Positions 9,851 through 28,389 of a stretch of DNA of 64,000 bases are shown in pieces (position 1 is the stretch's first letter; each line of letters begins with the position of its first letter). Source of the DNA: a virus; the IMG/VR virus record IMGVR_UViG_3300036770_006434, positions 32,001 through 96,000 of that record. One strand, 5' to 3'. The notes under the pieces are model-generated. The model ran no database searches. It saw only the letters and a program-made list of their open reading frames with translations, and was not told the DNA's origin. The translations under genes were made by a program, and so were the position numbers.

Positions 9851-10025
9851 GCCGCACCTTCACCGCTTTCGCGCTGTCGCTGCGACCCATTGCCGGGCCG
9901 CAAACGTCCTCCAAGGGCTGCCGCATCTTCACCGCTTTCGCGAAGTCGCTGCGACGCCTCGTCTAAACTGACAAGGTTCCGTTGCGTTAGCCGCACTTTC
10001 ACCGCTTTCGCGAAGTCGCAGCGAC
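9851..10025 (-). CRISPR. mini CRISPR array: 3 x 36-bp repeats, 2 spacers (33 and 34 bp)
   Basis: Repeats at 9851-9886, 9920-9955 and 9990-10025 (minus consensus GTCGCAGCGACTTCGCGAAAGCGGTGAAGGTGCGGC; 1-2 mismatches each to the consensus); unique spacers at 9887-9919 and 9956-9989; 14 bp from the stop of the RuvC gene. Confidence 0.85.
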
Positions 10026-10039
10026 TTCGTTGTCACAAC

Positions 10040-10390
10040 TCACTTCGCTTCAGCATGTTCCATCCCATTCCGCGAGCGCCACTCGTTTCCGAGGTGCAGG
10101 ACTGGCTCCGCTTGGAGGATCGGTTTCCCAACCCATTCTACGGCAGATACCTGTGTGGCGCGAGCGCCTACGGGCAACTGTTCCTGCATTGCCGCGCTCG
10201 CGGCAGATGAAACACTGTTTTCACAATGAATAGACTGAGTCGCCTCAATCCGTTTCTGGTTCACGGGGACACCGCGTGACGAAAGATTTGATTCTTTCGT
10301 CACACACCTGCGTTTGCGGCCTCTCGTGAGTTTCCCCACGACAGACGTTGAACCAGACTTGCTGACCGGGTGCGTCCCGGCCGTTTCCTT
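10040..10390 (-). ncRNA. putative omegaRNA/tracr-like scaffold overlapping the 3' tail of the RuvC gene
   Basis: perfect 11-bp hairpin at 10276-10303; complementary GCCGCGAGCGC/GCGCTCGCGG segments; the ORF tail here is low-complexity and lies beyond RuvC-III. Confidence 0.45.
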
Positions 10391-11866
10391 ATCCGTTTTG
10401 GCGGATTCCGAAATTTGTCGCTCAGTTTTTTGAGCAATTGCCTGCGCGGCCATGTAGTCGCGACCCCAAACGGACCCGCAGCAGGAGCACGTCCACTCTC
10501 GGACCGATGTATCCTTGGGGCCAGTTACGTTCTCGCACTTGATACAGGTGCGGGTCGTATAGGCTTCGTTTACTTGGACCACTGACTTTGGCGTAACACT
10601 GCGTTTGGCAAAATCCTTGAGAATACCCTCGAAGTTGGACACCGCGTTGTCGGCGTCCTTCCTGCGGGCTGCCGCGATTTCGCGCGCAGTCTTTCCGTCG
10701 CGATTCTTTTCGTGTATGGCCGCAAGTTCGCGCCCCTTGCAGTGACCGATTCCAACCGTATCAAACTGGGAAAGGATGCTCCGCGCGGACAGACGGTAAT
10801 GTTCCGTCCTGACGTTGGTCAGCCGACGGGTCATGTCGTTCATTTTACGTCGGGTCTCAATCATGCCCTTCGTCTTTTTCCAGATCAGTTTGACGCCGCG
10901 TTTGATAGACCCTTTTTCGTCGTAATTGGCGGGGTTGTTCTGCCGCATCTGTCGATCCAATTTGCGCTGTAACCGCGCTTGGCGGCGCATAAAGGCGGCG
11001 TTCCTGCAAATCGGTGGCGTCACATTGCCCTGAATCTCGCCGTCTGCCGAGCTGATGGTGATGGCGCTCGTCCGTCCGGGGTCTATGCCGGCGACCGCAC
11101 CGTTGGCGGAAGCGAAATTCTTTTGAGCCACCTCTTCCGGAACGTCCAAAAACAGGGATACGTGATAAACATCGTCCTGAACCGTGACGCCGACCTGCTT
11201 GACAACGGCTTCCTTGGGAACTTCTCGGTGCAATTTGATATCAACTCGGGAGCATGAATCTCCGAACAGGGCCGACAGATTCACTTTGTCCCCACGGATC
11301 AAGTCCAAAGCGTCCAGTCGATTGGCGGCCTGAAGGGTGCAAGAATCGCCAAAACGCTTGAATCGCGGCGCGCCCTTTTTGTTGGATGGATATTGGTCGG
11401 TAGAATCTGCAAACTTCGCCAAGATGGACTGCAAAAACGCGGACCCACCCGAAAAATCTCCCCGTTTGATACCGTTGGAAACCGTCTCCTTGGCATATGT
11501 GAGAGCCAGAGTGCGGATGGAGGCCCGCTTAGCCTTGGTCCCGTCCTTGCGCAAAATGGTATCGGCCTTTTTAAGAATCTTGCCGTTTAATTCCAGAATC
11601 GCTTCTTGGCGACTCTTGCCGGCGGCCAACATGTCGTTCAATATCTTGGCGCGGGCACCGGTATTTTTCTTCTCGGCCAGAATGGATTCAAGGTTTTTGA
11701 CGACTTCGGCCTTGCGACCGTGCGAGCATTCGGATTCCACCCATTTCATTGCGCCGACCAAAGCGTTCCAGACCTTGCGGGATTGGCGCTGGGCATCTCT
11801 GATAGCCGGAATTTGCCCATCATTTGGGTAAATCCTGTATTTGTAGATCAGCGTGGTAAGAGTCAC
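10040..11866 (-). CDS. TnpB/Cas12f-like RNA-guided RuvC nuclease (608 aa) with rearranged RuvC-II
   Basis: N-terminal YKYRIYP; GAPRFK; RuvC-I AGIDPG; bridge helix QRKLDRQ.RQNNP.NY; RuvC-II VGIGH (E absent); VNEAYTTRTC; CxxC...CxxC; RuvC-III RDYMAA.AI. Confidence 0.9.
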   Translation of the reverse strand: MTLTTLIYKYRIYPNDGQIPAIRDAQRQSRKVWNALVGAMKWVESECSHGRKAEVVKNLESILAEKKNTGARAKILNDMLAAGKSRQEAILELNGKILKKADTILRKDGTKAKRASIRTLALTYAKETVSNGIKRGDFSGGSAFLQSILAKFADSTDQYPSNKKGAPRFKRFGDSCTLQAANRLDALDLIRGDKVNLSALFGDSCSRVDIKLHREVPKEAVVKQVGVTVQDDVYHVSLFLDVPEEVAQKNFASANGAVAGIDPGRTSAITISSADGEIQGNVTPPICRNAAFMRRQARLQRKLDRQMRQNNPANYDEKGSIKRGVKLIWKKTKGMIETRRKMNDMTRRLTNVRTEHYRLSARSILSQFDTVGIGHCKGRELAAIHEKNRDGKTAREIAAARRKDADNAVSNFEGILKDFAKRSVTPKSVVQVNEAYTTRTCIKCENVTGPKDTSVREWTCSCCGSVWGRDYMAAQAIAQKTERQISESAKTDKETAGTHPVSKSGSTSVVGKLTRGRKRRCVTKESNLSSRGVPVNQKRIEATQSIHCENSVSSAASAAMQEQLPVGARATQVSAVEWVGKPILQAEPVLHLGNEWRSRNGMEHAEAK

Positions 11867-11874
11867 TTCCCACC

Positions 11875-11902
11875 ATTATACAAGAATTGTCCTTGGCGTC
11901 AA
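11875..11902 (-). promoter_or_regulatory. sigma70-like promoter TTGACG-N16-TATAAT for the RuvC gene (near-leaderless)
   Basis: perfect -10 box ends 8 nt before the GTG start at 11866. Confidence 0.75.
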
Positions 11903-12189: not shown

Positions 12190-12798
12190 TTACACCAACA
12201 GGAATGGCCGCCAGTCAGGGTGTCTAACCTCCCGAATGGTGACGGAGGCCGGCAGAGCCGGAGGCGCGACTGGTTTGCGAATAAGGGCGAGGCCGACTTC
12301 GTGGTTTAACCTGTTACTCTTCATGGAGTTCAGCTTTTTGTCCGCTACCACCATGTTGCTCCATTCATCCTTGCCGCCTCGGTCCTTGGGAATGACATGG
12401 TCAATATTCAACTGGTGACGCGGCAGTTTACGGCCGGTATACTGACATACGGAATTATCCCGTGCAAATATGGCCCCGGCTGACAGGCGCGGCCTTTTCA
12501 TAGGCATTTCCCCGTAGTTTTTGCTCACGACCACGGTCGGCACCCTGATCATTCTGGTCGCAGTCCTGACGTGAAGGTCTCCCGCGCGGACCGGGAGTTC
12601 GATCCACTCATCCCAACCCACGGGATTCGCGTAAATCAATTCGCCGTTTTCCATCTGGATGTCCAGCGCCAAAACCGGGGGCTCGCCGCCGGACTCGGAG
12701 CACAGAGAGGTGATGGCGGATTTCACGGTTTTTACGGAAATCGGCTGCCACTTGGAGTTCAGGCAGAGGGTTAGATGGGAGTCTAGGATGTGTGACAC
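12190..12798 (-). CDS. HNH endonuclease (McrA-like)
   Basis: IFARD...CQYTG....NIDHVIPK.RGG...W.N.V....LN..K. Confidence 0.9.
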   Translation of the reverse strand: MSHILDSHLTLCLNSKWQPISVKTVKSAITSLCSESGGEPPVLALDIQMENGELIYANPVGWDEWIELPVRAGDLHVRTATRMIRVPTVVVSKNYGEMPMKRPRLSAGAIFARDNSVCQYTGRKLPRHQLNIDHVIPKDRGGKDEWSNMVVADKKLNSMKSNRLNHEVGLALIRKPVAPPALPASVTIREVRHPDWRPFLLV

Positions 12799-13872: not shown

Positions 13873-13952
13873 TGGCACGCCCGGGAGGACTCGGACCTCC
13901 GACCTTCTGATCCGTATTCAGACGCTCTGGAATCCAACTGAGCTACGGGCGC
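13873..13952 (-). tRNA. tRNA-Arg(ACG)
   Basis: TAGCTCAG D arm; TCTGA-ATACGGA-TCAGA; CCA end. Confidence 0.9.
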
Positions 13953-14058
13953 GTAAAGTGAAAATTTCCAACGAGATACCAGAGCCAACGCCGGGACGGC
14001 GCGGCTCATCATAACTGATCGGCAAAACCTCCAAACCCAAGAAGGAGAGGAGGTCTTC

Positions 14059-14433
14059 ATGTCTACGCCGCCCGGTATGGAATACGTAAAACTGTGGATG
14101 CAGCAGAGTGCGCTATTCTGGTCTCGGCTTCAAAGTGCCACACTACTGCATACGGGGGTTCTCGCCGCGTGGTATCAAATGGGGCCGACTCACCCGCAAT
14201 TGCGTCTTGGTGTGCTATGCATGGGTGTCGCCATATCGGGGCTTCTCATAGCTATTATGGTTCGTGACGGGCAATATATGGATGCTATGAGAGATAAGGC
14301 TACCTCGGACCATTTCCCCGCGACCGGAAAGGACGCTCCGAGTGGCAGGATGTGCGGATATTTTATCGTGGCGATACCGATGTTGGCCGAGATGACGCTG
14401 GCTTTTAATCAGGTTTGCACATGTCTGAAATGA
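14059..14433 (+). CDS. multi-pass membrane protein on the opposite strand
   Basis: AGGAGG RBS; three hydrophobic segments; LFWSR motif. Confidence 0.65.
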   Translation: MSTPPGMEYVKLWMQQSALFWSRLQSATLLHTGVLAAWYQMGPTHPQLRLGVLCMGVAISGLLIAIMVRDGQYMDAMRDKATSDHFPATGKDAPSGRMCGYFIVAIPMLAEMTLAFNQVCTCLK

Positions 14434-14668
14434 TACCCCTCCATCCAGACGGTGGTCCAAAAGCTATTCGTGTCAGAAGAAGCGATCCCGCCACGAACAG
14501 CATAAGAAAAGAAAAGCAGCCGATCCAGCCGCCAGAGCCAACGCTGGGATTTGCCGTTTTCGCGACTTCACAGGCACAGGTGACGGGTTCGGCAATTTGC
14601 CCAGCGTGGCTCATCTGGGACGTTGTGAGAAAGCAGAAAAGAGCTGCGAAGATAATGGTTTTGATCAT
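14405..14668 (-). CDS. small secreted/membrane protein
   Basis: signal-like N-terminus and C-terminal TM; convergent overlap with the + gene. Confidence 0.5.
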   Translation of the reverse strand: MIKTIIFAALFCFLTTSQMSHAGQIAEPVTCACEVAKTANPSVGSGGWIGCFSFLMLFVAGSLLLTRIAFGPPSGWRGIISDMCKPD

Positions 14669-14978
14669 GAGAAGCAGTATGGTCAGGTTTGCCCACTTTG
14701 TCAAGCGCAAATCAAAGGTGCAGCTACACATCAAAGCTGCACCTAAAGTCTTCGGCCGGTGTGGAGATTCTGCGCCAAAAAGAGTCTATTCCCATTTAGC
14801 TGCACACTCCGTTTGAGGCCCATTACCCTCCCCGCGTCCCGCTGCGGTCTGCTCCTGCCGAAAGTGGAGCCACCGACAGGGGTTAACCCTGTCTCGCAAG
14901 AACACGCGACGGTGTCTGGACGAGGATTCGAGAAACGTGAGACACAAACGAGGTGTCGGGTTTTTCAGTGGCATAAAG

Positions 14979-15142
14979 TGGAGCCCCTAGGTCGGATTCG
15001 GCACCGACGACCTCGCTTGTCGCGCGTCTTCATCGCAGACCCTCAATTGATGAGTCCACTAAGAGACGCACGCTTGGGTGACCAACTGAGAAGCGCGCTC
15101 TCCTGATGACCGATATTTGGTAGGTCCTGAGCTACTGGGGGC
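14979..15142 (-). ncRNA. tRNA-Thr-like RNA with enlarged D loop and about 75-nt insert replacing the anticodon loop
   Basis: GCCCC..TAGCTCAG 5' end; GAGC; CGCTT...AAGCG stem; GAGGTCGTCGG-TGCCGAAT-CCGAC T arm; GGGGCTCCA 3' end. Confidence 0.5.
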
Positions 15143-15148
15143 GTAAAG

Positions 15149-15344
15149 TGGATGTCAGCTCTAGGCGTGCCCCTGATGGCCAGTTATTCCCCGACTTGGG
15201 CCATTCCGCGCGACCGGATTGGAGCCGGTTTCGGTGTTCACCTCTTCAGGTGCAGAACGATATAGTGTCGGGCAAGATGTCTACTGCACAGGGCACAAGG
15301 TTGGATTTCTCCGTCCAGTTGTAGACCCACGCATAGAGCTGACA
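15149..15344 (-). ncRNA. about 196-nt stem-closed RNA ending in CCA
   Basis: 11-bp perfect terminal IR TGTCAGCTCTA/TAGAGCTGACA plus GCGTG/CACGC; 3' TCCA. Confidence 0.45.
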
Positions 15345-15347
15345 AAA

Positions 15348-15423
15348 TGGAGGTCCGTGTCGGATTTTAACCGACGAATAACGCATTACAAAGGCGTTCC
15401 TGTAAACACTGAGGCAACGGACC
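15348..15423 (-). tRNA. tRNA-Thr(TGT)
   Basis: ACGCC-TTTGTAA-TGCGT; GGTCCGT/ACGGACC-T-CCA. Confidence 0.8.
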
Positions 15424-15429
15424 GAAAAC

Positions 15430-15503
15430 TGGCAGGCCCGTTCACTTGCCAGACACTTTGGAGGTGCCGGCGTCACTGTTTCGCTTCTAGTCGCACACGG
15501 GCC
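15430..15503 (-). tRNA. degenerate tRNA-Trp(CCA)-like
   Basis: GGCCCGT/ACGGGCC; GGCAC-CTCCAAA-GTGTC; T arm not recognisable. Confidence 0.45.
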
Positions 15504-15861
15504 AAGGTGCGTGGCGATTGACAGTAATCTTACATTTAATCTTTACAATGAGACGGCTCAGGTGGTGCCTGCCTTATCAATGCAGTCCATTCCAGCTTTC
15601 ACGCTGGGCAATCCCTTGTCGGGGCCTTGTGCGTGCGTCTCAAATTGGTGGGGCCTGCCGCACCGGTAGGGTGCAACTATCGGAGGGTCCCACTCCGTGA
15701 TGCTGTTTCAGGTCGCTTATCCATTCCCTAACGATGGCCTAGCCAAAACTATACTTCGCTATCTCGGCTCTGGTTCAGGATACCCTCAATGACAGTAAAA
15801 GTGAATAAAGCGGAACTGCACGGTAAATGCGCGCTGTGTATCGTGCTTGACGTGTGTAGAA

Positions 15862-15939
15862 TGGTGCCCACGGTGTTGGTTGCAAACACACTGTGCGGAT
15901 TTTGAATCGTCGCCGCCTCTCCTCTTGGGCTACGTGGGC
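15862..15939 (-). tRNA. tRNA-Leu(CAA), short V arm
   Basis: GCCCACG/CGTGGGC-A-CCA; TTCAAAA loop with weak stem. Confidence 0.6.
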
Positions 15940-15944
15940 AAAAA

Positions 15945-16018
15945 TCGCGATGAGGGTGGTTGCAACCCTACTGACAGAATGTTTAAGATTCCGGCCTCTA
16001 CTCTTGGGCTACATCGCG
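15945..16018 (-). tRNA. tRNA-Leu(TAA), short V arm
   Basis: GGAAT-CTTAAAC-ATTCT; CGCGATG acceptor; no CCA. Confidence 0.7.
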
Positions 16019-16025
16019 GAAAGAT

Positions 16026-16099
16026 TGCCCTCGGCTGTGGTTGCAACAGCACTGTTATCCTCCTAAGGGATACGTCTCCTACTCTTGGACTACGAGGGC
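16026..16099 (-). tRNA. tRNA-Leu(TAG), short V arm
   Basis: TATCC-CTTAGGA-GGATA; GCCCTCG/CGAGGGC; no CCA. Confidence 0.75.
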
Positions 16100-16104
16100 G
16101 AAAT

Positions 16105-16180
16105 TGGGGGCTCAGGCGGGATTTTCACCCGCAACCTTCTCCGTATGATGGAGCCGCGCTGGACATTGCGCCACTGAGCC
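16105..16180 (-). tRNA. tRNA-Met(CAT)
   Basis: CTCC-ATCATAC-GGAG; GGCTCAG acceptor; CCA. Confidence 0.7.
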
Positions 16181-16198
16181 GTGAAAGGAAATTGTCCT

Positions 16199-16438
16199 TC
16201 AATTATATAGCCACACATGGTCCTTAACCTCCCGTGGCATGGGCGCGCTGTCCGGGTCCTCCACCACTGCGCCCAGAGCCCGACGGACCTTGGCTTTGCG
16301 CCCCTTAGAGAGATACTCTTTGGCCGCGCGGCTGGGTTTGTGGTGGGGTTTGCCGTCCATGCGCGCTTCTTGCACCTCTTTGGCGGTTGGCTTGTAGCGA
16401 GAGACATCGAGAGGATCGCGGCGGCGGGTGTTGCTCAT
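16199..16438 (-). CDS. basic hypothetical protein
   Basis: 79-aa ORF with GGAG-type RBS. Confidence 0.6.
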   Translation of the reverse strand: MSNTRRRDPLDVSRYKPTAKEVQEARMDGKPHHKPSRAAKEYLSKGRKAKVRRALGAVVEDPDSAPMPREVKDHVWLYN

Positions 16439-16475
16439 AGGAGTGGGTGATAGGTTTCGGTTAGAGTATAGAGCG

Positions 16476-16751
16476 CTAAAACCTGTTTAGTGCGGCCATC
16501 ATTCTCTGGCGCCCCACCGGGTTAGCCGAATGCACGGTAACGCGCGGCGGCGCAAAACCCCTTGTGAGCACCGCTTCCTCCAACCACAGGACAACATCAT
16601 AACCGTCTCCATTACATTCGTCGCCCAGATCGTGGTCGAGGCTCAGGTCGGTAACCTCACCGGTTTGCAACAGGGCGATGGTCTGCTCTGGGGTGTAGGT
16701 TCGGGTCCAGCCGGAAGGGGTGGGGCGGAGGTCATCTAGGTAGACTTTCAT
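16476..16751 (-). CDS. cyclic-phosphate-processing receiver-domain protein
   Basis: KVYLDD.RPTP.GW, SLDHDLG, G.GYD, VHSANPVGR..M. Confidence 0.85.
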   Translation of the reverse strand: MKVYLDDLRPTPSGWTRTYTPEQTIALLQTGEVTDLSLDHDLGDECNGDGYDVVLWLEEAVLTRGFAPPRVTVHSANPVGRQRMMAALNRF

Positions 16752-16841
16752 TGAGGTGGAGTAGGTTAAAGGCTGGCCGCGCCAGTGTGTCAAGCACTGA
16801 CGGGGCCGAAAACTCACTGTGCGCGTGGAACAGGAGCTAAG

Positions 16842-16928
16842 TGGCTGGGGCGGCAGGATTTTAACCTGCAAGTCTTTTCAGACGGTAGGTTCAAAGCCTA
16901 CTGCGTTTAACGGTTCCGCCACGCCCCA
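16842..16928 (-). tRNA. tRNA-Gln(TTG) with extended V arm
   Basis: TGGGGCG/CGCCCCA-G-CCA; GTAGG-CTTTGAA-CCTAC. Confidence 0.8.
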
Positions 16929-17161
16929 GTGAATTTACCACAAATCCCTTTAGCTCGGTTTCGCACTTGGACGCGAGACTAGACCGACTCGCCCTTACGC
17001 GCCACGGGAGGGGATCAACATAGCGGGGTTAGCCGCTGTGGTAAAGATGGCCAAGGCCCAGTCCATCAGTATTGCGCTATGCGCGAGCGGGAGTCGAACC
17101 CGTCCGCTAGGGGACTTGCACCCCGCTGCATGATGGAACGAGACCGTCTCGTCCTTGAAAT

Positions 17162-17254
17162 TGGCTGCTCCGGCAGGGAACGATCCTGCAATATCCTTGT
17201 AAGGGTCTTCTGCTTAACGGGCAGTGGCTTTACGCAGTTTTAAGCTACAGAGCA
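17162..17254 (-). tRNA. tRNA-Asn(GTT) with extended V arm
   Basis: CTGC-CCGTTAA-GCAG; TGCTCTG/CGGAGCA-G-CCA. Confidence 0.7.
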
Positions 17255-17260
17255 ATGAAA

Positions 17261-17338
17261 TGGTGCGCGCTAGAGGACTCGAACCTCTGATGATGCCGAC
17301 GTGTAGGGTCGGAGCAGTCGCCGCTGTGCCAAGCGCGC
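17261..17338 (-). tRNA. tRNA-Val(TAC)
   Basis: CCGAC-CCTACAC-GTCGG; canonical GGTTCGAGTCC; CCA. Confidence 0.8.
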
Positions 17339-17387
17339 AAATGAGATTGATTCCGTATCAGGGAGAATCGGCTGTCGTTCTACAAAG

Positions 17388-17468
17388 TGGCGATTACGAC
17401 GGGGCTCGCACCCGCTACATAACGCACGCGTGACAGGCGTGGGCCTCGGCTTCTTCGGCTTCGTAATC
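17388..17468 (-). tRNA. tRNA-Asp(GTC)
   Basis: CACGC-CTGTCAC-GCGTG; GATTACG/CGTAATC-G-CCA. Confidence 0.8.
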
Positions 17469-17531
17469 GTGAAAATAAACAGGCGTCCTATCCGTTATGC
17501 CAACGGCCCCAGCTTGCCGTCCCACATGTAG

Positions 17532-17579
17532 GGTGGCGCGCCTTAATGATGGACTCTGACTGGACTGAGCTAACGCGCC
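17532..17579 (-). ncRNA. truncated tRNA (acceptor stem plus D arm only)
   Basis: GGCGCGT-TAGCTCAG...AGAGT-short linker-GCGCGCC-ACC; no anticodon or T arm. Confidence 0.45.
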
Positions 17580-17591
17580 GGAAAACCAAAT

Positions 17592-17822
17592 TTAGCGCCA
17601 ACTCAGTTTGCGCTTTCCGTTTAGCGACGTGATATACAATCGTCCGAACAATCGAACTACCCAACATTCACCTTCTCTGATGTATATCCAATTTTTTAGC
17701 CCCCGTATTACGACCGAATCTCCATCTCGAAGACAGAGCCAGTGACTGAAAAGCATAACAAGGAGGGTATCGTTTTGGGTAAGCCAACAATGGCCGCGTG
17801 GGATGGGAGTATGTATAGACAT
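17592..17822 (-). CDS. hypothetical protein
   Basis: 76-aa AT-rich ORF between tRNAs. Confidence 0.5.
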   Translation of the reverse strand: MSIHTPIPRGHCWLTQNDTLLVMLFSHWLCLRDGDSVVIRGLKNWIYIREGECWVVRLFGRLYITSLNGKRKLSWR

Positions 17823-17847
17823 AAAATAAATGTGTATTATATTAAGA

Positions 17848-17923
17848 TGGTCAGTCCGGCTGGTATCGCGCCAGCTTAAATCCTAGTCCCAAACTAGGTG
17901 CCTCACTTTTCGGCCACGGACTG
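17848..17923 (-). tRNA. tRNA-Pro(TGG)
   Basis: CCTAG-TTTGGGA-CTAGG; CAGTCCG/CGGACTG-A-CCA. Confidence 0.85.
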
Positions 17924-18047
17924 TAAAGATTGCCCACCCCGTTGCGCGCGAGGTGGGCTTCTCAAACGCCGCCCAAGGACGAGGAAACAAGATCGTCCTA
18001 CATGGGTTTGTCTCTTGATGACTGGGTGCGTTATATCGAAAGATTGC

Positions 18048-18118
18048 AAGCAGGTTGTGGTATCGCGCCACACGAGCCGCGACCTTATGAGAGTCCGGCG
18101 CACCTTGTGCTACCTGCC
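18048..18118 (-). tRNA. tRNA-Met/Ile2(CAT)
   Basis: GACT-CTCATAA-GGTC; GGCAGGT/ACCTGCT; GCGCGATA-type T loop; no CCA. Confidence 0.6.
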
Positions 18119-18403
18119 ATGTAAATTTAGAGGGGAGAGCAGCCCTCGGCATCCCGCGTCCGGTCCGCGCGCCGCTCTCCCCGTTATTGTCTATCTGATG
18201 TTACCGATCCTTGCGGTAGTCATTGTCGAAAATCACGACAATTCCTAGGCAAGCGAACAGGGCTACGAATGCGAGCATTGGTAAGCGCCTTTCTGTCCTT
18301 CGTCTGCGGTCCCGTGGGAGCGCGCAGGGGTTTGCTATATTCCTGATTCCGCACGCTTCAACGGGTGAAACCACCGGCCAAAGTGAGTGTGGGAGGAAAT
18401 GGA

Positions 18404-18529
18404 TTTGAGCGGGCTGGGCGCTAAACCAGCTGGGCAGGCCCCACATGCATGGCGACATCGTCTAATGCTGCCGGTTCGATTCGTTCGCCACGCTTCAGGA
18501 CTGTGTGTCTGCTTTCCACACCGCCGCTC
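18404..18529 (-). ncRNA. tRNA-like RNA with expanded central domain
   Basis: GAGCGG/CCGCTC acceptor; GGTGTGGAAAGCAGACAC D-like arm; GCTGG..CCAGC T-like arm; about 70-nt middle. Confidence 0.4.
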
Positions 18530-18538
18530 AAATTGATC

Positions 18539-19078
18539 CCGGGTTCGTTCGGAGGTTAGAAGACCGTGTTAGCGAAGTTTTTTAACTCTTTCTGTAGCTC
18601 AAGGGACAGAGGATAGTGAGTTAAAGAACAGACTGACTGGTCGGCCGGGGTCGTAACCCGTTTTTATCGCCGACCATTTACCTACGAACGAACCCGGAAA
18701 AATGTTTTGCCAACCGGGCGGATTGTAGCACTCGGGCACTAGACCCCGGGCCACCTTGAACCGCCTAGTCTATTCGGATCGCGGCCTGATCAGGACTGCC
18801 ACGGCTTCGGGCCGAAGCATCGGACCCACGGAGACTTACTAACGTTGCCAAATGGGGCGTGCCACTGTTGGCGGCACACCTTGTAGCCGGCTGTTATCCC
18901 ACCCGGCGGCGGTTGACAAAAGGTTTTGAGCGGTCCCTAAGTTCGGCAAGGGGTCTATGGGTAAGCCCCAGACTTCGACTCCGGTTTGCTACATCCTGCG
19001 TCTTGTGGCCACGCCACGCAGTGTCTCGCCTCTCGGTGGGAATCCTCGGCCGGTCGCTGTGAAAAGCGCCGCTCAAAA
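18539..19078. ncRNA. three consecutive stem-closed structured elements (18539-18697, about 18705-18921, about 18924-19078)
   Basis: terminal IRs CCGGGTTCGTTCG/CGAACGAACCCGG, TTTTGCCAACCG/CGGTTGACAAAA and TTTTGAGCGG/CCGCTCAAAA; no credible ORF. Confidence 0.45.
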
Positions 19079-19139
19079 TGGTGCCCCCTTTTCTCCCTAG
19101 TAACGAGCAGCTGTTCTCGCTGGGAAGAGGGCAAAAATA

Positions 19140-19229
19140 TGGCTAGGACGGTGGGTATCGCGCCCACATCGCGGGTTGCCCCGCTTGCCGGATTTGGAGT
19201 TCGGTGCATTTCTTGTCTGCCACGTCCTA
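19140..19229 (-). tRNA. tRNA with CCA (Trp) anticodon, long V arm and G73
   Basis: TAGGACG/CGTCCTA-G-CCA; CTCCAAA loop; V arm GCGGG-GCAA-CCCGC. Confidence 0.7.
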
Positions 19230-19398
19230 ATGAAAATTGATCCCCGCAGCAAGTGTCGCCCAACGGGCTATCCTGCACCGAAGATATCCTACTTTGCAAA
19301 CCTCGGATAAATGGGAGGTTGATTTCGGGCCGTCTTACAGGGAACGGCTGGCTTTGTGTCCGGCATCGTCCTGTAAACGCGCCGTAGTTTGTCCAAGA

Positions 19399-19473
19399 TG
19401 GTGGTCCCAGCAGGATTTTCGCCTGCAACCTGACAGAAATCAACTGTCTACTCTGGATTTGAGCTATGGGACC
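19399..19473 (-). tRNA. tRNA-Ile(GAT)
   Basis: GACAG-TTGATTT-CTGTC; TAGCTCA D arm; CCA. Confidence 0.7.
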
Positions 19474-19543
19474 GTAAATGGCTGGATGGTTCTTTATTCC
19501 TTACGCCTTCCAGTGTGCGGTCCATTTGGAGTAATGGACAAAG

Positions 19544-19630
19544 TGGTGGGCTAGACAGGACTCGCACCTGTGGAGGACCGAAGTCCGGGGCGTTTACAGC
19601 GCCCTGCAATAGCTGCTATGCGACTAACCC
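19544..19630 (-). tRNA. tRNA-Tyr(GTA)
   Basis: GGGCG-CTGTAAA-CGCCC; V arm GGAC-TTCG-GTCC; CCA. Confidence 0.9.
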
Positions 19631-19635
19631 GAAGA

Positions 19636-19710
19636 TGGAGCAGTGCAAGGGGGTCGAACCCTCGTGATTCTGATTGGAAATCAGATGCATAACCGTTCTG
19701 CCAACACTGC
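19636..19710 (-). tRNA. tRNA-Gly(TCC)
   Basis: TCTGA-TTTCCAA-TCAGA; GGTTCGAC; CCA. Confidence 0.9.
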
Positions 19711-19715
19711 GAAAT

Positions 19716-19789
19716 TGGTGGACCGCCACGGTTACTCTCCGTGGACTGTGAGATGCAAACTCACCGTGATGATATTTCACCAGCGGCCC
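19716..19789 (-). tRNA. tRNA-Ala(TGC)
   Basis: GTGAG-TTTGCAT-CTCAC; G3:U70 pair; CCA. Confidence 0.8.
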
Positions 19790-19940
19790 AAAATGGCACC
19801 GAGTAGGGTTCTTAACCCGTTCAGCCATGTGCTTTAGACTGTTAGGACTCGGTTTCCTCACGTCCCTTGCGCTTTGCCTTGTCGGCACGCTACCCCGATA
19901 GACGCCTGCTGAGGCACTAAAATCCGGGAGGGGGAAAGGA

Positions 19941-20015
19941 TGGAGACGCGTAGAGGATTTTCGCCTCTGTGGAACAGGATTGCAATCTGTCGCTTAGATA
20001 CTCAGCCAACGCGTC
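19941..20015 (-). tRNA. tRNA-Cys(GCA)
   Basis: ACAGA-TTGCAAT-CCTGT; U73; CCA. Confidence 0.8.
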
Positions 20016-20021
20016 GTAAAG

Positions 20022-20096
20022 TGGTAGTCCCGTCGGGTATCCAGCCCGCTTCATCGGCTTAAAAGGCCGCTGCTCATGCGCTAAAGCTTCGGGACT
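20022..20096 (-). tRNA. tRNA-Lys(TTT)
   Basis: CGGC-CTTTTAA-GCCG; AGTCCCG/CGGGACT-A-CCA. Confidence 0.75.
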
Positions 20097-20205
20097 ATAG
20101 AATGGCGGCTGTGACTCTCCAGCGTTGTCAAGCCTACCCTCCCCAGTTGGAACCGGTTGCGGACTTCAATCCGAGAGCGACTCGGCGTGCGGGCTTTCGC
20201 AAAAA

Positions 20206-20280
20206 TGGTAGCCTAGGAGGGTGCTACCCCCTCTACTGAAACTTGAAAGGTTTCCGAGATAGTTGATTCTCCACTAGGCC
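20206..20280 (-). tRNA. tRNA-Glu(TTC)
   Basis: GAAAC-CTTTCAA-GTTTC; GGCCTAG/CTAGGCT-A-CCA. Confidence 0.75.
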
Positions 20281-20908
20281 GTAAAATGAAAGCTGGAAAC
20301 CGGGAATATCTTATACCCCACGGATTTCCAGCCGTTTTTCTTACCCCGATGCCTCACCGCGTGTCCCAGCGGCCTATTGGCTGTTGCGTCCGTTCGGGTA
20401 AACGGGCTTTTAATGATTCAATGATCGTGTTCAAGAAACTGGCCGCCGGGTCGGCGGGAAACGCCCTTAACCGGAGGCTTAATCTCTTGGAAATCTGGTA
20501 ATGAACGAACTGACCTGATCCTTATCTGCTGCCTATCTTACTCCTTTTGCGGCCCCAGTCAATGACTTTCTTCAAAAAACTGAACCCCGGTGCTTTTTAC
20601 GGCTTCCGGGGTTCTTGGGGGAGACTTTGCTATCCTATCTCTGTCGGTTGAATTTCTATGGCTTCTGCTCTTTTGCTCCCCCTACTAACCCCGATACCCG
20701 TCTTCCGGGCGATTACCGGGAAACGAATTGGCGCATGCCCACAATGGACTTGTGGTAATACGCTCTCTTTTGGACTGTTGTGATTTGAGGGGCACTTGGA
20801 AATGGTGTCTGCAAATATGCGTTACACAGGAATCTGGGTGAGTTATGAAAATATTTTCAGAATCCCGCCGCATTCACGGATTCAAAGCATTGGGCGCACA
20901 TGTTTCTA

Positions 20909-21331
20909 TCATGCCATGGTCAATTCCGGGTTTTCATGGATATTGCCGATAACCTCGGTGGTTTCTTTTGTGGAGTAGTCTCCCCCGACGCGAAAACCGG
21001 ATACGCCGCCAAATCCGTCAAAACTCTGTTCCCATTCAACGGCCATCGTGTCGTAATGCGCTTCTCCCAATCCCGGAGTTTCTCTGGGATAGCGGACGAT
21101 ATCCCCTTCATACACTTCAACTCCGTTCTTATCCAGAACGCCGGTAAACTGTTCCACCACATACTTGGATTCAGGCGAGTATATGGCAACCATCAGGAAT
21201 GGCACATACGGCGGCTGGCCCGGAATCATTTCTTGCGAAAGGCCGACCACGGACCACATCACGGTGGGCTCCAGATATTTTGCGGCTTGGGTATCCCAAA
21301 CGCGGAATTTGATAGGTCTTTTCGTGTTCAT
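20909..21331 (-). CDS. YopX family protein
   Basis: IKFRVWD, QFTG.LDKNG.E.YEGDIV, EVIGNIHENPEL. Confidence 0.9.
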   Translation of the reverse strand: MNTKRPIKFRVWDTQAAKYLEPTVMWSVVGLSQEMIPGQPPYVPFLMVAIYSPESKYVVEQFTGVLDKNGVEVYEGDIVRYPRETPGLGEAHYDTMAVEWEQSFDGFGGVSGFRVGGDYSTKETTEVIGNIHENPELTMA

Positions 21332-21831
21332 GTGTTATTCATCGGTTCCCAACTCTGCCCCTTTGTAAAAGAAGCGTCTCGCGGCAAAACACGGTCTATC
21401 GTGATAAGTTTTCCTCTTTCATCCCGAAAAGACAAAGATACGGTGGGCTTATCCGAGTCCAGATGCCACGGATTATCTGGAACATCCGTGATTGTGGCGG
21501 CATATTTTTTACACGAATGCGAGTAATACAGGACATCTTCGCCTATCCAGTTGGACGACCCCTTCTTGTTGATCGGTTTGTCGCCTTTGTAATTCAAAGC
21601 CCTGTCTATGGCGGAGATAGCGGACATCAGGAATCCCTCCCGCTCGTTTACCTCAAAGGAACCGTCTCCATGCGGTCTGGCCTCATACACGGTTTTGCCG
21701 CCAAACGGGGTTTCGGCTGTAAAACGACCGTGGCGTAGGCGCAAATAGCCCACCTCCTTATCGCCCAGATACACGTTATACTGCTCCGGGCATGAGCCGC
21801 CGCCTTCCAGTCTGTAGTTACCGATTTGCAT
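21328..21831 (-). CDS. phage hypothetical protein
   Basis: 167-aa ORF; CPEQY.V...VGYLRLRHG motif. Confidence 0.7.
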   Translation of the reverse strand: MQIGNYRLEGGGSCPEQYNVYLGDKEVGYLRLRHGRFTAETPFGGKTVYEARPHGDGSFEVNEREGFLMSAISAIDRALNYKGDKPINKKGSSNWIGEDVLYYSHSCKKYAATITDVPDNPWHLDSDKPTVSLSFRDERGKLITIDRVLPRDASFTKGQSWEPMNNT

Positions 21832-21842
21832 GAAATGGAATC

Positions 21843-22166
21843 TTAAAACCCCGCAGCCTTCAAGTCCATCACTGCTTCCGGCAATCTCTCAATCGGCAGG
21901 TCCACAATGACTTGCGCATCTTCCTTGAATGGATACCAGCTCAAGGTAAAAGTCTTTTTGTCTGCCGGCACAATGATCATCGCACAATAACGGGCAATCT
22001 TCGGGTCATTGACCAAGGATTTGACGTAGCCCGGCTTGCTGGCTATCTTGATAAACCAGTAAACCGTAGAAAGGTCGGTCTGGATAATCTTCTCGGGCGT
22101 CAGTTTGGCTAGAGCGGCGGTCGGCGTAATAGCCGTGGGGGCGGCTTGGACTAGAGACTCGGTCAT
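21843..22166 (-). CDS. hypothetical protein
   Basis: 107-aa ORF, ATGA overlap. Confidence 0.6.
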   Translation of the reverse strand: MTESLVQAAPTAITPTAALAKLTPEKIIQTDLSTVYWFIKIASKPGYVKSLVNDPKIARYCAMIIVPADKKTFTLSWYPFKEDAQVIVDLPIERLPEAVMDLKAAGF

Positions 22167-22555
22167 TTTAGTTTTGCGATCCTAGCCACTAGCTCGTCCT
22201 GCATAAGTTTTCCTTCTGGGTCCCCAGCGGCAACTCGAATTTCGGCCAAAAGGGAAAGGAGGGAGAAAACAGTATCCTGCTCTTCCTTCAGTTCCTTCTC
22301 CAGTTCCTCGGCTCTATCCTGCCAAGTCTCGGCACAGCCGCCGTGGTCCCAGCCATCGTCCCGTCGCCAGACTAGGCGATTGATGGACAATGGTGCTTCC
22401 GGTCCCGTGTATATGATGCCGGCCGCAGCGCAGGCGTATCTCTCGATTTCGATACGAATTTTCTCTTCCAACTCTGGCCCGACAAACTCGGGGTTACGTG
22501 CAAATCCCACCAGTTCAGCGGCGACGGCGGCGGAGGTGTGCGGGTAAATAGGCAT
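22163..22555 (-). CDS. hypothetical protein
   Basis: 130-aa ORF with a coiled-coil segment. Confidence 0.6.
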   Translation of the reverse strand: MPIYPHTSAAVAAELVGFARNPEFVGPELEEKIRIEIERYACAAAGIIYTGPEAPLSINRLVWRRDDGWDHGGCAETWQDRAEELEKELKEEQDTVFSLLSLLAEIRVAAGDPEGKLMQDELVARIAKLK

Positions 22556-22563
22556 AGCAGCAG

Positions 22564-22938
22564 TTACGCTTCAATCCCTCTCTCCTTGGATACAATCTTG
22601 CGCACTTCCCCGTTCAAAAACATGACCATGAGTTCGGCACTGTCCGGGCTCCAAAAACACTTGGAGTCATCCTCCGAGACATCTTCCCGTTCGTCGTGAT
22701 TGCCACGGACCGGATCGTAGGCAGCGTAGCCGACAGAGTTCTGTTCCCGATTCCAGCCGATAATGCCGAAATTCTCGTAGCCCTGAGAGTCCTTGGAGAA
22801 AACAAAAAAGGCGTCGGGGTTTTGATCATCCTGCTCGATAGCGTGCATAACCCCTTGGGAGTCAAGGCTATCCTCGATATACCGGATGACGTTCTGGACC
22901 TCTTCGCGGCAGGGGAGGTAATTCCATTCCCGGCTCAT
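22564..22938 (-). CDS. hypothetical acidic protein
   Basis: 124-aa ORF, ATGA overlap. Confidence 0.6.
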   Translation of the reverse strand: MSREWNYLPCREEVQNVIRYIEDSLDSQGVMHAIEQDDQNPDAFFVFSKDSQGYENFGIIGWNREQNSVGYAAYDPVRGNHDEREDVSEDDSKCFWSPDSAELMVMFLNGEVRKIVSKERGIEA

Positions 22939-23177
22939 TTGGACTGCCCTCCGATTGACTCGGCTTTGAGGGACGCCAGAATATTGGCCTGCAAGTTCGC
23001 GCCGAACTCCCCGGCCCGATGCCAGAACACTTCCTTGACCACGTCTTTGGTGACCGCGTCTACGAGTTGGACTGATTTTGAGGTAAACCTCGCGCCGTAA
23101 GGGCCGGACTGGTCGGCTTTATCCAAGAGTTCGGCGACATCGGCTGGAATTTGCAGGTCTTCGGTTGATTGTGTCAT
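22935..23177 (-). CDS. hypothetical protein
   Basis: MTQSTED start just downstream of dnaE. Confidence 0.55.
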   Translation of the reverse strand: MTQSTEDLQIPADVAELLDKADQSGPYGARFTSKSVQLVDAVTKDVVKEVFWHRAGEFGANLQANILASLKAESIGGQSK

Positions 23178-23190
23178 ATTTTGCGGTGGT

Positions 23191-26100
23191 TCAGATTGTA
23201 GCGGTTTTACCCGATTGGTCAAGTGTTTTTGCTTCCTTCTCCTCTTTTTCTTTGGCGTCCTTCAGTTCGGACAGCTTCATAAATATCTTGGCGGATTGGA
23301 TGCCAAGTCCCACTCCATCATAACCGGACTGAATGAAGACCATGTCCGAGGACATTTTCTTGCCGTTCACGACCACTAGGTCACCCTCAATCGGGTCGCG
23401 GCCATTCTGCTCTTTGATCAGGTCGATATTGTCGTTAAACGCTTTGATCGTGAGACTTCCGGTCTCATCGGATACCGTGAACTTCAGGGAGTTATTCCCC
23501 TTCTTGGTCTTGCTCTTATACGGCTCATCCGAAATGAACCCGATAATGCGACAGAAGGAATTGTCAGACATCTGTTTGACATTTGACACGGTGGTCAGGC
23601 CGTCCACGTATTCGGAGAAGATATCGGAAATGGTCTCGGAATAGGAGTAGCCTAGGATATGGCGCTCATACCAGTAATTGGCCAGTCTCTCGTTTTGGCT
23701 GTTCTTCGTGTAGATTTCCTTGAAGGACTCATACTTCTTTTTGATGGTATTGAAGCGGCGCTCCGGGATAACGGGCTTGCCCTTCTCCGTTTTCGCGACT
23801 TCCGCCAGATGCTTGACGGCCCGTAGAACGTCCCAGCCGATTTCCGGCGAACCGCCGATTCCCAGACAGTGCCCCTTTTCAACGTCCGTCAAGAGATTCC
23901 ATGTGCAGACTTCAAGGACCAGCCGGCTGCGGGAGTGATAGAGTTCACCGTTTGGCCGCCGATATTGGTCATAGCCGGACAGGCAGCCGGCTTGGATCAG
24001 TGCGGAGACCAGACCGATGTGCAACCCGGCGTTTTTCGCGGCTTGGAAGACCTCGAATTTGGTGGCGGCAGATTCCGCTTTGGTGCGGAAGGTATCCAGT
24101 TTCTCGGCGTTTTTCTCGGAGATACCGCGAATGATACCGAGGGCGAAGCGGATGGAGTTGTCTCCTTCCATCTCGAAGTCTAGCCGGCTCTTGATGAAAT
24201 GCGGCGGCAACAGGGAGAAATTCTTCAATCTCATCTCCTGCTCGATTTGGCGGATAACCTCGTGGGGCGCGGACTCGTGGCGGGCCATGCGGAGGAGGGA
24301 GAGGTAGAATTGGAGGGGGTGGTTGGCCTTGAGGTATAGTGTCCACGCCGTGATCATGGCGTAGCTGGAACTGTGACTGTTGGATACCACGACGCCGCCA
24401 GCGTAAAAATTGTGGTCAGGGTGGGATACTTCCAAATCAACGGTGGGTTGCACGCCCTGCTCGGAAATTGACTCAATATAGAGAACCCCCTCCTCCGTTT
24501 GAACGCCAAGTTTTCTGTCCCAGACTTGAGAAAGTTTTCTCATCCACCCCTCTTCGGTTAGCAGTTTGTGCTCCAACGAGCAGGTTAGCTCCAGTTTTGA
24601 ACCGACGAATTGAACGCGATACAGGTTGGCCTCACTCCAGTGGACGCCTTTAACCTCTACATAGTGGTCTGATTTACTGTCCACATCGTATGCACGGACA
24701 CAGTCGCCAACCCTTACGTCTCCGACCATGCAGAGCGGATCACGCTTGGTATCGACAGTGGTGCAGGGGTCAAGACACTTGTTAAACGAATATCCACCGC
24801 TATCTTCCGCGATTTTCAACAAAAGATCAGCCACATTGGTCGGGTGGTTATTAGCTTTGCACCGCTCCACAATCTGTGCTTTGACAATCGGCACCTCTTC
24901 AATCTTTTTCTTACCCAGCACCCTTCTGGCGTTCTCGGCCTCCTCGTCCGACAGCCCCACGCGTTTAAGCATGGAGAGATAGGTTTCTTGGAACAAGCAG
25001 AGCCCCCCGGTTGGCTTCAGGATATCGTCAACCAGCGGGTGAACCGATGTGAATTTACCGTCATTCAGATAATCGCAATACTGTTGCAAATAGTCAATAG
25101 CGCCCGGTCGCGCGATAGCCAGAACTGCGCTGAGTTGCTCGAAATTCTTGGGCTTCACTTTGGCGGCGGCATTGCCTTGTGCAAAGGTTTCCAGCTGGAA
25201 TATGCCGTAGCGTGAAGAGAAGTTCTGGAGATAGGCGTAAATTGAGGGGTGATGGATATCAATGTCTCCCCGCTTGATTCCAAGCAGCTTGCAGCATTCC
25301 TGCACCACATCCGTGGTCCTCAGGCCCAAGATGTCCATTTTGAGGCTCAGTTCCTGCGCCGACTGCATGTCGAAGCCGGAGACAGGCTCTTTGTCCGAAG
25401 ACAGTTGAATGGGCATCAGTTTTTGAATATTCTTGTGCGCAATCAGAACAGCGGAAGCGTGCTGCCCCTCCCCTCGATTCAGGTCGGCCAAGGACATGGC
25501 GATTTTTACCGTTTCTTCGTGGGCTTGCGCCCATTTGGCGAACCTTTCATTCGGTGGGCGCCCCTTTTCCTTGTCTCCATCCCGCCACTTTTTGTCGCCG
25601 AAAGCCGCGATTTCAATGTCCTCCGGGATGCCGGCCTCTTTTTCGATCATGGACGACACTTCATTGGCCTCCTCCTCGGAACCACCCTCATATACTTTGA
25701 GGACATCCTTGATCAGAATCTTGGAACTGAAAGTGGTGGTGGTCAACAACTTGGAAGTCTGACCGGGATAACGACGATTGATATAGTCAATAATCTCCCC
25801 GCGCCGGTAGAAGGAGAAGTCCAGATCAATGTCCGGCACAAGGGAACCTTCAATATACCGGATTCCGTTCACTGTCTTGGACTTGGCGCGAGCCTTGGAA
25901 AGGAATCGGGTAAAGAACAGAGAATGTTCAATGGGGTCAATCTCCGTAATGCCGACGAGATATGCGACCAGACAGCCGCCGACCGAGCCGCGACCGGGGC
26001 CGCGAGGTATTCCCTGTTGGTCCGCGAACCAGCAAATGTCCCAGACTGCCAGAATGTAGTCTACGAAACCGAGTTCCGAAATGACGGCCAACTCCTCCTT

Positions 26101-26316
26101 GACTCGGTCCGCATACAGCTTGTGGTTCTCCTTTTTGACCCGCTTCGCGACCCGCTCTCGGAATCCATTGCGGCAAAGCTGGGTGATGAACTCCAGATTG
26201 TTACAATCGTCTTTTGCGCCGGCCGCTTTCCTCTGTTCATCCGTGATGACGAGGACCGGCATGATAACGCCATTATATGGGAGCGCAGAATAAGGTTTAA
26301 TTTCGCGTAGATTCAT
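23191..26316 (-). CDS. dnaE: DNA polymerase III alpha-type polymerase core (no PHP domain), intein-containing
   Basis: GPGRGSVGG, PDIDLDF, QHASAVL, K.DILGL, GIFQLE, FNK/SHS..Y, C-terminal OB fold. Confidence 0.95.
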   Translation of the reverse strand: MNLREIKPYSALPYNGVIMPVLVITDEQRKAAGAKDDCNNLEFITQLCRNGFRERVAKRVKKENHKLYADRVKEELAVISELGFVDYILAVWDICWFADQQGIPRGPGRGSVGGCLVAYLVGITEIDPIEHSLFFTRFLSKARAKSKTVNGIRYIEGSLVPDIDLDFSFYRRGEIIDYINRRYPGQTSKLLTTTTFSSKILIKDVLKVYEGGSEEEANEVSSMIEKEAGIPEDIEIAAFGDKKWRDGDKEKGRPPNERFAKWAQAHEETVKIAMSLADLNRGEGQHASAVLIAHKNIQKLMPIQLSSDKEPVSGFDMQSAQELSLKMDILGLRTTDVVQECCKLLGIKRGDIDIHHPSIYAYLQNFSSRYGIFQLETFAQGNAAAKVKPKNFEQLSAVLAIARPGAIDYLQQYCDYLNDGKFTSVHPLVDDILKPTGGLCLFQETYLSMLKRVGLSDEEAENARRVLGKKKIEEVPIVKAQIVERCKANNHPTNVADLLLKIAEDSGGYSFNKCLDPCTTVDTKRDPLCMVGDVRVGDCVRAYDVDSKSDHYVEVKGVHWSEANLYRVQFVGSKLELTCSLEHKLLTEEGWMRKLSQVWDRKLGVQTEEGVLYIESISEQGVQPTVDLEVSHPDHNFYAGGVVVSNSHSSSYAMITAWTLYLKANHPLQFYLSLLRMARHESAPHEVIRQIEQEMRLKNFSLLPPHFIKSRLDFEMEGDNSIRFALGIIRGISEKNAEKLDTFRTKAESAATKFEVFQAAKNAGLHIGLVSALIQAGCLSGYDQYRRPNGELYHSRSRLVLEVCTWNLLTDVEKGHCLGIGGSPEIGWDVLRAVKHLAEVAKTEKGKPVIPERRFNTIKKKYESFKEIYTKNSQNERLANYWYERHILGYSYSETISDIFSEYVDGLTTVSNVKQMSDNSFCRIIGFISDEPYKSKTKKGNNSLKFTVSDETGSLTIKAFNDNIDLIKEQNGRDPIEGDLVVVNGKKMSSDMVFIQSGYDGVGLGIQSAKIFMKLSELKDAKEKEEKEAKTLDQSGKTATI
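24379..24777 (-). mobile_element. 133-aa mini-intein in DnaE
   Basis: C1 (CLDP) after SFNK; CSLEHK block B; VDLEV..HNF block F; ends SN followed by +1 Ser (SHSSSY); no endonuclease domain. Confidence 0.9.
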
Positions 26317-26317
26317 A

Positions 26318-26962: not shown

Positions 26963-26967
26963 AGAAT

Positions 26968-27198
26968 CTAGCTGACGATAGCCCTCTTCGGTATCTTGTC
27001 AAGCCTCTCGGGCAAGGAAAGCACCTTTTCGCCCAGCCATTGGCGCGATACGTCCTTCCGCTCATACTCAAGGCCAAGGGCTTCAGCCAAATTGTAAGGA
27101 CGAATAAAGTGATCCTCACAGAAGAGGGCCCCGTCAATGTAGAGTCCCTCCCAGTCGTCGCCGTTGGAGACTATTGTGATTTTGGGTGTCGGGTTCAT
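26968..27198 (-). CDS. hypothetical protein
   Basis: 76-aa ORF; DDWEGLYIDG. Confidence 0.6.
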   Translation of the reverse strand: MNPTPKITIVSNGDDWEGLYIDGALFCEDHFIRPYNLAEALGLEYERKDVSRQWLGEKVLSLPERLDKIPKRAIVS

Positions 27199-27829: not shown

Positions 27830-27848
27830 TGTATGATAAAGGTCTGCC

Positions 27849-28343: not shown

Positions 28344-28389
28344 AGAATGGAAGATATACCAATTTCGGGCGATTAGTCAATTCCCTTTT

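Follow-up and report, generated by a model that had tools for sequence, protein, structure and literature searches.

The window analysed here is a stretch of 64,000 nucleotides (nt), bases 32001-96000 of the 190,671-bp IMG/VR virus record IMGVR_UViG_3300036770_006434. It harbors a TnpB-family nuclease gene coupled to a small array of clustered regularly interspaced short palindromic repeats (CRISPR). The phage record is rated complete and carries direct terminal repeats. Three elements follow each other on the minus strand: the gene for a TnpB-family protein of 608 amino acids (aa), a gap of 14 nt and a mini-array of three repeats. Together they probably form a TnpB-derived, CRISPR-like module for RNA-guided DNA targeting, of the V-U*/TranC kind and built like Cas12n, which is present as a single copy in this 190-kb phage. 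An earlier interpretation made without database searches (the sequence-only reading) had described a 608-aa RuvC/zinc-ribbon protein, three 36-bp repeats, spacers of 33 and 34 bp and the 14-bp gap, all of which are present. It had also proposed a candidate new type V-like system. This part is not supported as stated, because independent TnpB-to-Cas12 transitions with small arrays and without cas1/cas2 have already been published (PMC10691335; 10.64898/2026.03.27.714800). The locus is a well-preserved example of the published transposon-to-CRISPR intermediates and not a new kind of system.

The gene for the RNA-guided nuclease (P0001; 10040..11866, minus strand) has a GTG start and a stop codon at 10042-10040. 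Repeat 1 (9990..10025, 36 nt) starts 14 nt past the stop codon. It is followed on the same strand by spacer 1 (9956..9989, 34 nt), repeat 2 (9920..9955, 36 nt), spacer 2 (9887..9919, 33 nt) and repeat 3 (9851..9886, 36 nt). The three repeats are 85-90% identical over a 39-nt register. Neither spacer occurs a second time in the window or elsewhere in the genome. The repeat ends are complementary to each other, and repeat 1 together with its flank forms a near-perfect palindrome. The approximately 30 nt past repeat 3 (to about 9817) could be a third guide, if each repeat precedes its guide as in omega RNA. The repeat pattern was absent elsewhere in IMG/VR, and no Rfam family matched the window between 9000 and 12500. 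A 151-nt contig from the same sample (run X1, depth 2) contains a 33-nt stretch similar to repeat 3 (9851-9883), with three mismatches and unrelated flanks. This is a hint that the community may contain another array with a similar repeat.

Profile searches of the complete 190,671-bp phage yielded neither Cas1 nor Cas2, while the control genomes gave matches. The Y1 transposase TnpA (PF01797) and serine recombinases (PF00239) were likewise absent from the complete phage, again with matching controls. The sequence-only reading had noted that no transposase adjoins the gene and that cas1 and cas2 are missing in the window; both statements extend to the entire 190,671-bp phage. The TnpB-family gene occurs once in the whole phage and once in each of two Chthoniobacterales metagenome-assembled genomes (MAGs) of about 5 Mb. 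With no TnpA in the whole phage and only one gene copy there and in each of the two MAGs, the locus is not an ordinary mobile insertion sequence (IS). The transposase and the multiple copies that characterize mobile IS200/IS605 or IS607 elements were both missing.

The coupling of the nuclease to a mini-array, first suggested by the sequence-only reading, recurs in divergent homologues. The family is small: among 1.8 billion representatives, about 41 clusters at 50% identity reach an E-value of 1e-30. The members originate from soil and subsurface samples, from a 219-kb phage and from two Chthoniobacterales MAGs. The 3' flanks were read at every family locus with DNA, and conservation was counted on 42 members. 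The check proposed earlier, whether homologues also carry repeats, revealed arrays at the 3' end of the gene in at least eight divergent lineages (32-46% identity), with differing repeat sequences. They comprise two to five repeats at or over the stop codon with a period of 69-76 nt, and their starts range from 18 nt ahead of the end of the stop codon to 14 nt past it. The window locus has three repeats. Two repeats were found in L003, L005, L013, L026/L028 (perfect 37-mers, despite frameshifted genes) and L043 (where the contig then ends), three in L029, and four to five in L030, which belongs to a MAG. The repeats cannot be put down to chance, since divergent homologues have comparable arrays in the same place. 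The differences in repeat sequence between lineages exclude one recently spread element. V-U* groups are defined by at least two clusters with linkage to CRISPR, and the array-bearing homologues provide such clusters. No cas genes were present among the flanking genes of the homologues, and no transposase was found beside those scanned. L030 is neighbored by DprA, Bro-N and SocA/Panacea genes.

The closest homologue, L002 from the 219-kb phage (46% identity), has a single unit which aligns with repeat 1; this is the omega-RNA state. In L029 (924-979) the first repeat is degenerate and followed by a 17-nt insert, approximately the guide length of TnpB omega RNAs, and later spacers have about 40 nt. 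L004 (1685-1797) carries two repeats of about 40 nt on the same strand, approximately 540 nt upstream of the gene, and the conserved scaffold at the 3' end of the gene. These upstream repeats start with the same 9-nt motif as the window repeats. Their pairing with the 3' scaffold of the same locus gave a z-score of about -2. L004 may be a fully split arrangement with the trans-activating CRISPR RNA (tracrRNA) separate from the array. A homologue with 33% identity, L009 (2430-3240; also L008 and L010-L012), shows one repeat-like unit downstream of the gene and then a long tandem array. The latter has a period of 95-97 nt with two alternating sub-repeats of about 18-20 nt, and its spacing is not CRISPR-like. 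At three further family loci, the gene is followed by a stretch of 245-381 nt without genes. Frameshifts in the soil homologues L016-L018, L021, L022-L025, L026, L028 and L029 recur in contigs of different samples and are therefore probably real.

A conserved structured RNA scaffold, similar to omega RNA and tracrRNA, extends over about 250 nt (10026..10300, minus strand). It overlaps the 14-nt gap and the codons of the disordered protein tail (residues 498-608, 10043-10375), as expected of an omega RNA, whose scaffold lies over the 3' end of tnpB. For ten loci, the 300 nt up to and including repeat 1 were aligned. Long nucleotide blocks are conserved across the ten loci, although the proteins are only 32-46% identical and poorly conserved in the tail. 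Conserved RNA blocks over a disordered tail indicate selection on the RNA, not on the peptide. RNAalifold predicted a long-range 9-bp helix with compensatory changes. Judged by eye, an upstream tetraloop hairpin also covaries. The corresponding 301-nt stretch of the window has a minimum free energy (MFE) of -126.5 kcal/mol (z -4.8), and none of 100 shuffled sequences was as stable.

The scaffold ends with an anti-repeat (10032..10048, minus strand), which extends across the stop codon and base-pairs with each repeat in its 5' half. A terminal hairpin is present in both the MFE and the centroid fold: here a 6-nt loop connects the anti-repeat to the 5' half of repeat 1. The 45-nt upstream segment and repeat 2 cofold with -31.5 kcal/mol versus -19.6 kcal/mol for shuffled sequences (z -5.6). 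The anti-repeat layout is also present in L003, L005 and L013 with different sequences. In an ungapped alignment, 62.7% of the cells were paired versus 29-50% in slid controls. A conserved 8-nt motif about 60 nt before repeat 1 was considered as anti-repeat and rejected; according to RNAalifold, it pairs with an upstream segment of the scaffold.

The protein consists of an N-terminal WED/HTH part, an enlarged helical REC insert, the RuvC domain, a zinc ribbon (TNB) and the disordered C-terminal tail. The NCBIfam model guided_TnpB was matched with 101.4 bits (cut-off 100) over residues 8-480, covering the whole profile, and it was matched by all 42 family members. Pfam HTH and TNB domains scored above cut-off, and Cas12f1-like_TNB reached 4e-11. 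The curated Cas12 subtype models were missed by the window protein (C2c8, 52.5 bits, cut-off 350; Cas12f2, 14 bits, cut-off 450). The specific models for IS200/IS605 TnpB, IS607 TnpB, C2c8 and Cas12f2 remained far below their cut-offs in 42 of 42 relatives. PADLOC profiles for Cas12u2, Cas12f and Cas12u4 (V-U2, Cas12f and V-U4) gave alike modest scores, with E-values of 1e-21 to 4e-17. An AlphaFold2 model based on the 42-sequence alignment had a predicted local distance difference test score (pLDDT) of 81. Residues 1-497 were modelled confidently, and the last 111 residues (498-608, pLDDT below 50) are a predicted disordered tail. The best folds in Foldseek were TnpB of ISDra2 and ISFba1, AsCas12f, Cas12p, Cas12m2 and Fanzor2. 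They ranked at about equal level, so that no Cas12 subtype stands out. Searches with the single sequence yielded Cas12m proteins as best matches in the PDB. The HTH/WED part, the split RuvC, the TNB, the match to the curated model and the fold of a solved TnpB place the protein in the TnpB superfamily.

The RuvC site departs from the canonical composition. The catalytic aspartate of RuvC-I, Asp262 (codon 11081..11083, minus strand), is present in 39 of 42 members and invariant in the close family. The canonical position of the RuvC-II glutamate is occupied by Gly374 (codon 10745..10747, minus strand) in all 42 members. In profile alignments to solved structures, this glycine is aligned with the residue that in LaTranC and in a TnpB-like nuclease is the catalytic RuvC-II glutamate. 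Glu434 (codon 10565..10567, minus strand), located seven residues ahead of the first zinc-ribbon cysteine, is a candidate for a relocated catalytic glutamate and conserved in 42 of 42 members. The zinc ribbon contains four cysteines (Cys441, 444, 460 and 463; 10478..10546, minus strand), each conserved in 40-41 of 42 members. Asp470 (codon 10457..10459, minus strand), the catalytic aspartate of RuvC-III, occurs in 38 of 42 members and is preceded by an arginine in 41 of 42. The combination of Gly374 and Glu434 has the pattern published for the active site of RuvC-II-rearranged (RIIr) TnpBs. In such clades the active site was modelled with an alternative glutamate and the authors judged the proteins to be probably still active; some branches are enriched in viruses (PMC10691335). 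The description as RuvC/zinc-ribbon protein in the sequence-only reading was right in its modules; it overlooked the replacement of the RuvC-II glutamate and the guide scaffold inside the 3' tail of the gene.

The module may operate as follows. Messenger RNA, scaffold and array would all be part of one transcript from the promoter of the gene. A natural single-guide RNA of the omega type would consist of the scaffold, the anti-repeat, the loop, repeat 1 and spacer 1. Repeats 2 and 3 would be set free together with the spacers downstream of them and would then use the same anti-repeat for pairing in trans, in the manner of a CRISPR RNA (crRNA) and its tracrRNA. The loaded protein is expected to bind and probably to cut spacer-matching DNA beside a protospacer-adjacent or transposon-associated motif. 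Competition with other mobile elements or an action on the host would be a likely use; the sequence-only reading had proposed competing phages or host genes as targets. New repeat-spacer units probably arise by duplication or recombination, or are supplied by an adaptation module of the host, since the phage has none.

Several observations weigh against such a module. No protospacer was found for either spacer in any of the collections searched, the habitat being a poorly sampled subsurface metagenome. GenBank phages gave only chance matches of 19-20 nt, and exact 24-mers had zero matches in IMG/VR. The best sites in the phage's own genome had 12-14 mismatches, the related 219-kb phage gave no match, and in 401 Verrucomicrobiota genomes matches did not exceed 25 nt, which is chance level. 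This DNA occurred in DNA contigs of one subsurface study and in no RNA run. The array was identical in four runs of this study, and no turnover was seen. Linkage to an array is frequent in the family, not universal (none in L015-18, L022-25 and L031), and several homologues are frameshifted. Comparative support for the anti-repeat is moderate: z-scores range from -1 to -1.8 at the loci outside the window, and the covariation score was reached by 14 of 500 shuffles. A competing fold, in which each repeat closes on itself, shows some wobble covariation. The activity of the rearranged RuvC site, including the closeness of Glu434 to both aspartates, has been inferred.

Three other explanations were considered. 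The locus could be an ordinary selfish TnpB/omega-RNA element or an immobilised remnant of it. In this case unit 1 would work for homing or retention, and the other repeats would be non-functional duplications of the right end. Only the generic TnpB model was passed, the scaffold lies over the 3' end of the open reading frame (ORF) as in omega RNAs, and the closest homologue has a single unit, all of which would be expected of such an element. The many frameshifted homologues, as often seen in decaying selfish elements, and the different placement of the nuclease gene relative to shared genes in the related phage point in the same direction. However, the phage lacks a TnpA, and neither it nor either of the two MAGs has more than one copy of the gene. 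Units of 69-76 nt with unique spacer-sized inserts and differing repeats in at least eight lineages argue for selection on the form of the array, and repeats 2 and 3 are still complementary to the anti-repeat. A selfish element is thus considered an unlikely origin of the present arrangement. It is still less likely that the protein is a programmable DNA binder or repressor similar to Cas12m, Cas12c or TldR, which does not cut and whose array silences host or rival genes. Gradual inactivation of RuvC in V-M and domesticated nuclease-dead TnpBs are documented, and the glycine at the canonical RuvC-II position in 42 of 42 members as well as the Cas12m proteins as best single-sequence matches in the PDB would suit this function. 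Yet Asp262, Glu434 and Asp470 are conserved as in the RuvC-II-rearranged clades thought to be active, and truly dead lineages usually lose several catalytic residues.

The repeats may also be viewed as structured intergenic elements, either terminators and attenuators or protein-binding palindromes, without a function as guide modules. Each repeat does fold as a stand-alone hairpin, and the palindrome formed by repeat 1 and its flank is nearly perfect. A T-tract as terminator signature is missing at the repeats, and divergent homologues agree in where the repeats lie, in their period, in the unique inserts of spacer size and in the continuity with the conserved TnpB-type scaffold. A purely structural role is very improbable. 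The preferred interpretation remains the TnpB-derived, RNA-guided module outlined above.

A further-reaching proposal on the family is more tentative and has somewhat less than an even chance. The family might have made the step from TnpB to CRISPR independently, as an uncatalogued lineage whose RuvC-II glutamate is relocated and in which all stages exist side by side. These stages would be a single guide in the 219-kb phage, a scaffold fused to the first of two to five repeats in this phage, the soil elements and the Chthoniobacterales MAGs, and possibly a split form in L004. An oversight by published screens is plausible, because two to three imperfect repeats escape standard finders and one screen retained only triads of the Asp-Glu-Asp (DED) type.

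A sigma-70-like promoter match (11875..11902, minus strand) is located upstream of the nuclease gene and agrees with the consensus in 11 of 12 positions with a 16-nt spacer. The sequence-only reading had assigned the gene its own promoter, TTGACG-N16-TATAAT. The site exists but is no commoner than in shuffled sequence: one such site was found in the region versus a shuffled mean of 1.5, which is not above chance. Only 8 nt separate the end of the -10 box from the GTG start; use of this promoter would leave the mRNA with almost no leader. It is the only strong promoter match (window 11864-11902), and a message that is leaderless or nearly so would be unusual for a GTG start.

The neighborhood of the nuclease gene consists of an HNH endonuclease gene, small ORFs without family matches and a tRNA cluster. 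The HNH gene (12190-12798; PHROG match, 3e-21) lies directly upstream of the nuclease gene. The tRNA cluster beyond it (13873-19710) has nine or more genes, which all lie on the minus strand. The 219-kb phage with the closest homologue and this phage have three other genes in common (37-49% identity), among them a lysozyme gene. They are located in the region 17165-29679 of the genome of this phage. Relative to these shared genes the nuclease gene is placed differently in the two phages, which is compatible with an old movement or with a rearrangement.

If active, the module would provide an effector of about 500 aa, without its dispensable tail, with a natural single-guide RNA design that is easy to test as a compact editor. 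Activity would also show that a CRISPR-linked nuclease can work with a rearranged RuvC site. One, two, three and four to five units at one junction in relatives with 32-46% identity illustrate how the last stem of an omega RNA may be duplicated into an array and subsequently split into tracrRNA and crRNA, as has been suggested for the way in which type V systems arose. The locus adds a case of a large phage with a guide-programmed nuclease and without adaptation genes. Should the family indeed be an uncatalogued transition, it would become directly testable how a CRISPR array is born and grows in the absence of Cas1-Cas2.

Among the known systems, the architecture is like that of Cas12n (V-N, formerly V-U4/c2c9). 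Both have a compact effector with REC and WED parts larger than those of TnpB, and both lack adaptation genes. They share a disordered C-terminal tail whose coding DNA holds the tracrRNA, with the anti-repeat just before a small array, and a guide RNA of several stem-loops ending in an anti-repeat:repeat stem. The C-terminal tail of Cas12n is dispensable. In sequence, Cas12n is remote (PADLOC Cas12u4, 60 bits; profile match to PDB 9J09, 7e-9), and the protein is not shown to be a Cas12n member. The phage system further differs by the relocated RuvC-II glutamate in place of the canonical DED triad, by its phage host and by arrays of only one to five repeats. Its repeat 1 is naturally fused to the scaffold by the 6-nt loop in the region of the stop codon.

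TnpB-to-Cas12 transitions have occurred in about 50 independent events, and 40 V-U* groups have been described, mostly without adaptation modules (PMC10691335). TranC systems are regarded as transposon-CRISPR intermediates (Jin et al., 2025, Cell, as cited in PMC13565253). A phage-borne TranC clade has been published in a preprint (10.64898/2026.03.27.714800), and CauTranC9 is an example of a phage-encoded TranC. Huge phages carry TnpB/Cas12f-like genes with compact arrays (PMC11748809). "RNA splitting", the division of an omega RNA into tracrRNA and crRNA, is the proposed route for TranC systems. The TranC and V-U6 to V-U45 groups (Altae-Tran et al., 2023) resemble the phage locus in their TnpB-like effectors, small arrays, the missing cas1/cas2 and an omega RNA functionally split into tracrRNA and crRNA, a transition which arose many times. 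LaTranC, the only TranC with a solved structure, is remote, with an E-value of 6e-4 by sequence alone and 3e-15 by profile over the C-terminal half. The other published TranC and V-U6 to V-U45 clades were compared by their description only. One of the published screens demanded the canonical DED triad, which is absent from this family.

RIIr TnpBs (e.g. RIIr-5, and the virus-enriched RIIr-4; Altae-Tran et al., 2023) and the rearranged sites of the Fanzor type share the exchange of the RuvC-II glutamate for glycine and the conserved alternative glutamate downstream. The zinc ribbon and the Arg-Asp motif of RuvC-III are retained as well. In contrast to these clades, which are mainly TnpBs and often mobile, the nuclease of this phage is array-linked and single-copy.

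The PADLOC profiles of Cas12f reached only 60-70 bits. The repeat of Cas12f1 (Cas14a) begins and ends with complementary motifs similar to those of the phage locus, and the 3' anti-repeat of the tracrRNA pairs with the 5' part of the repeat. Engineered Cas12f1 single-guide RNAs copy this anti-repeat:repeat layout with a tetraloop. Cas12f has a canonical DED triad and works as a dimer. The sequence-only reading had found Cas12f-like repeat ends at the phage locus. The ends do pair, and the anti-repeat pairs with the 5' part of the repeat; the similarity is no more than a resemblance.

The TnpBs of IS200/IS605 elements, e.g. ISDra2, have the same fold, a scaffold over the 3' end of the ORF and the guide at the 3' end of the RNA. 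Their single-unit state is present in the closest homologue, L002. The protein core of the phage nuclease has about 500 aa compared with about 400 aa in IS200/IS605 TnpBs. In contrast to these elements, the phage locus has no TnpA, is single-copy and contains the terminal module of the scaffold in several repeats with unique spacers.

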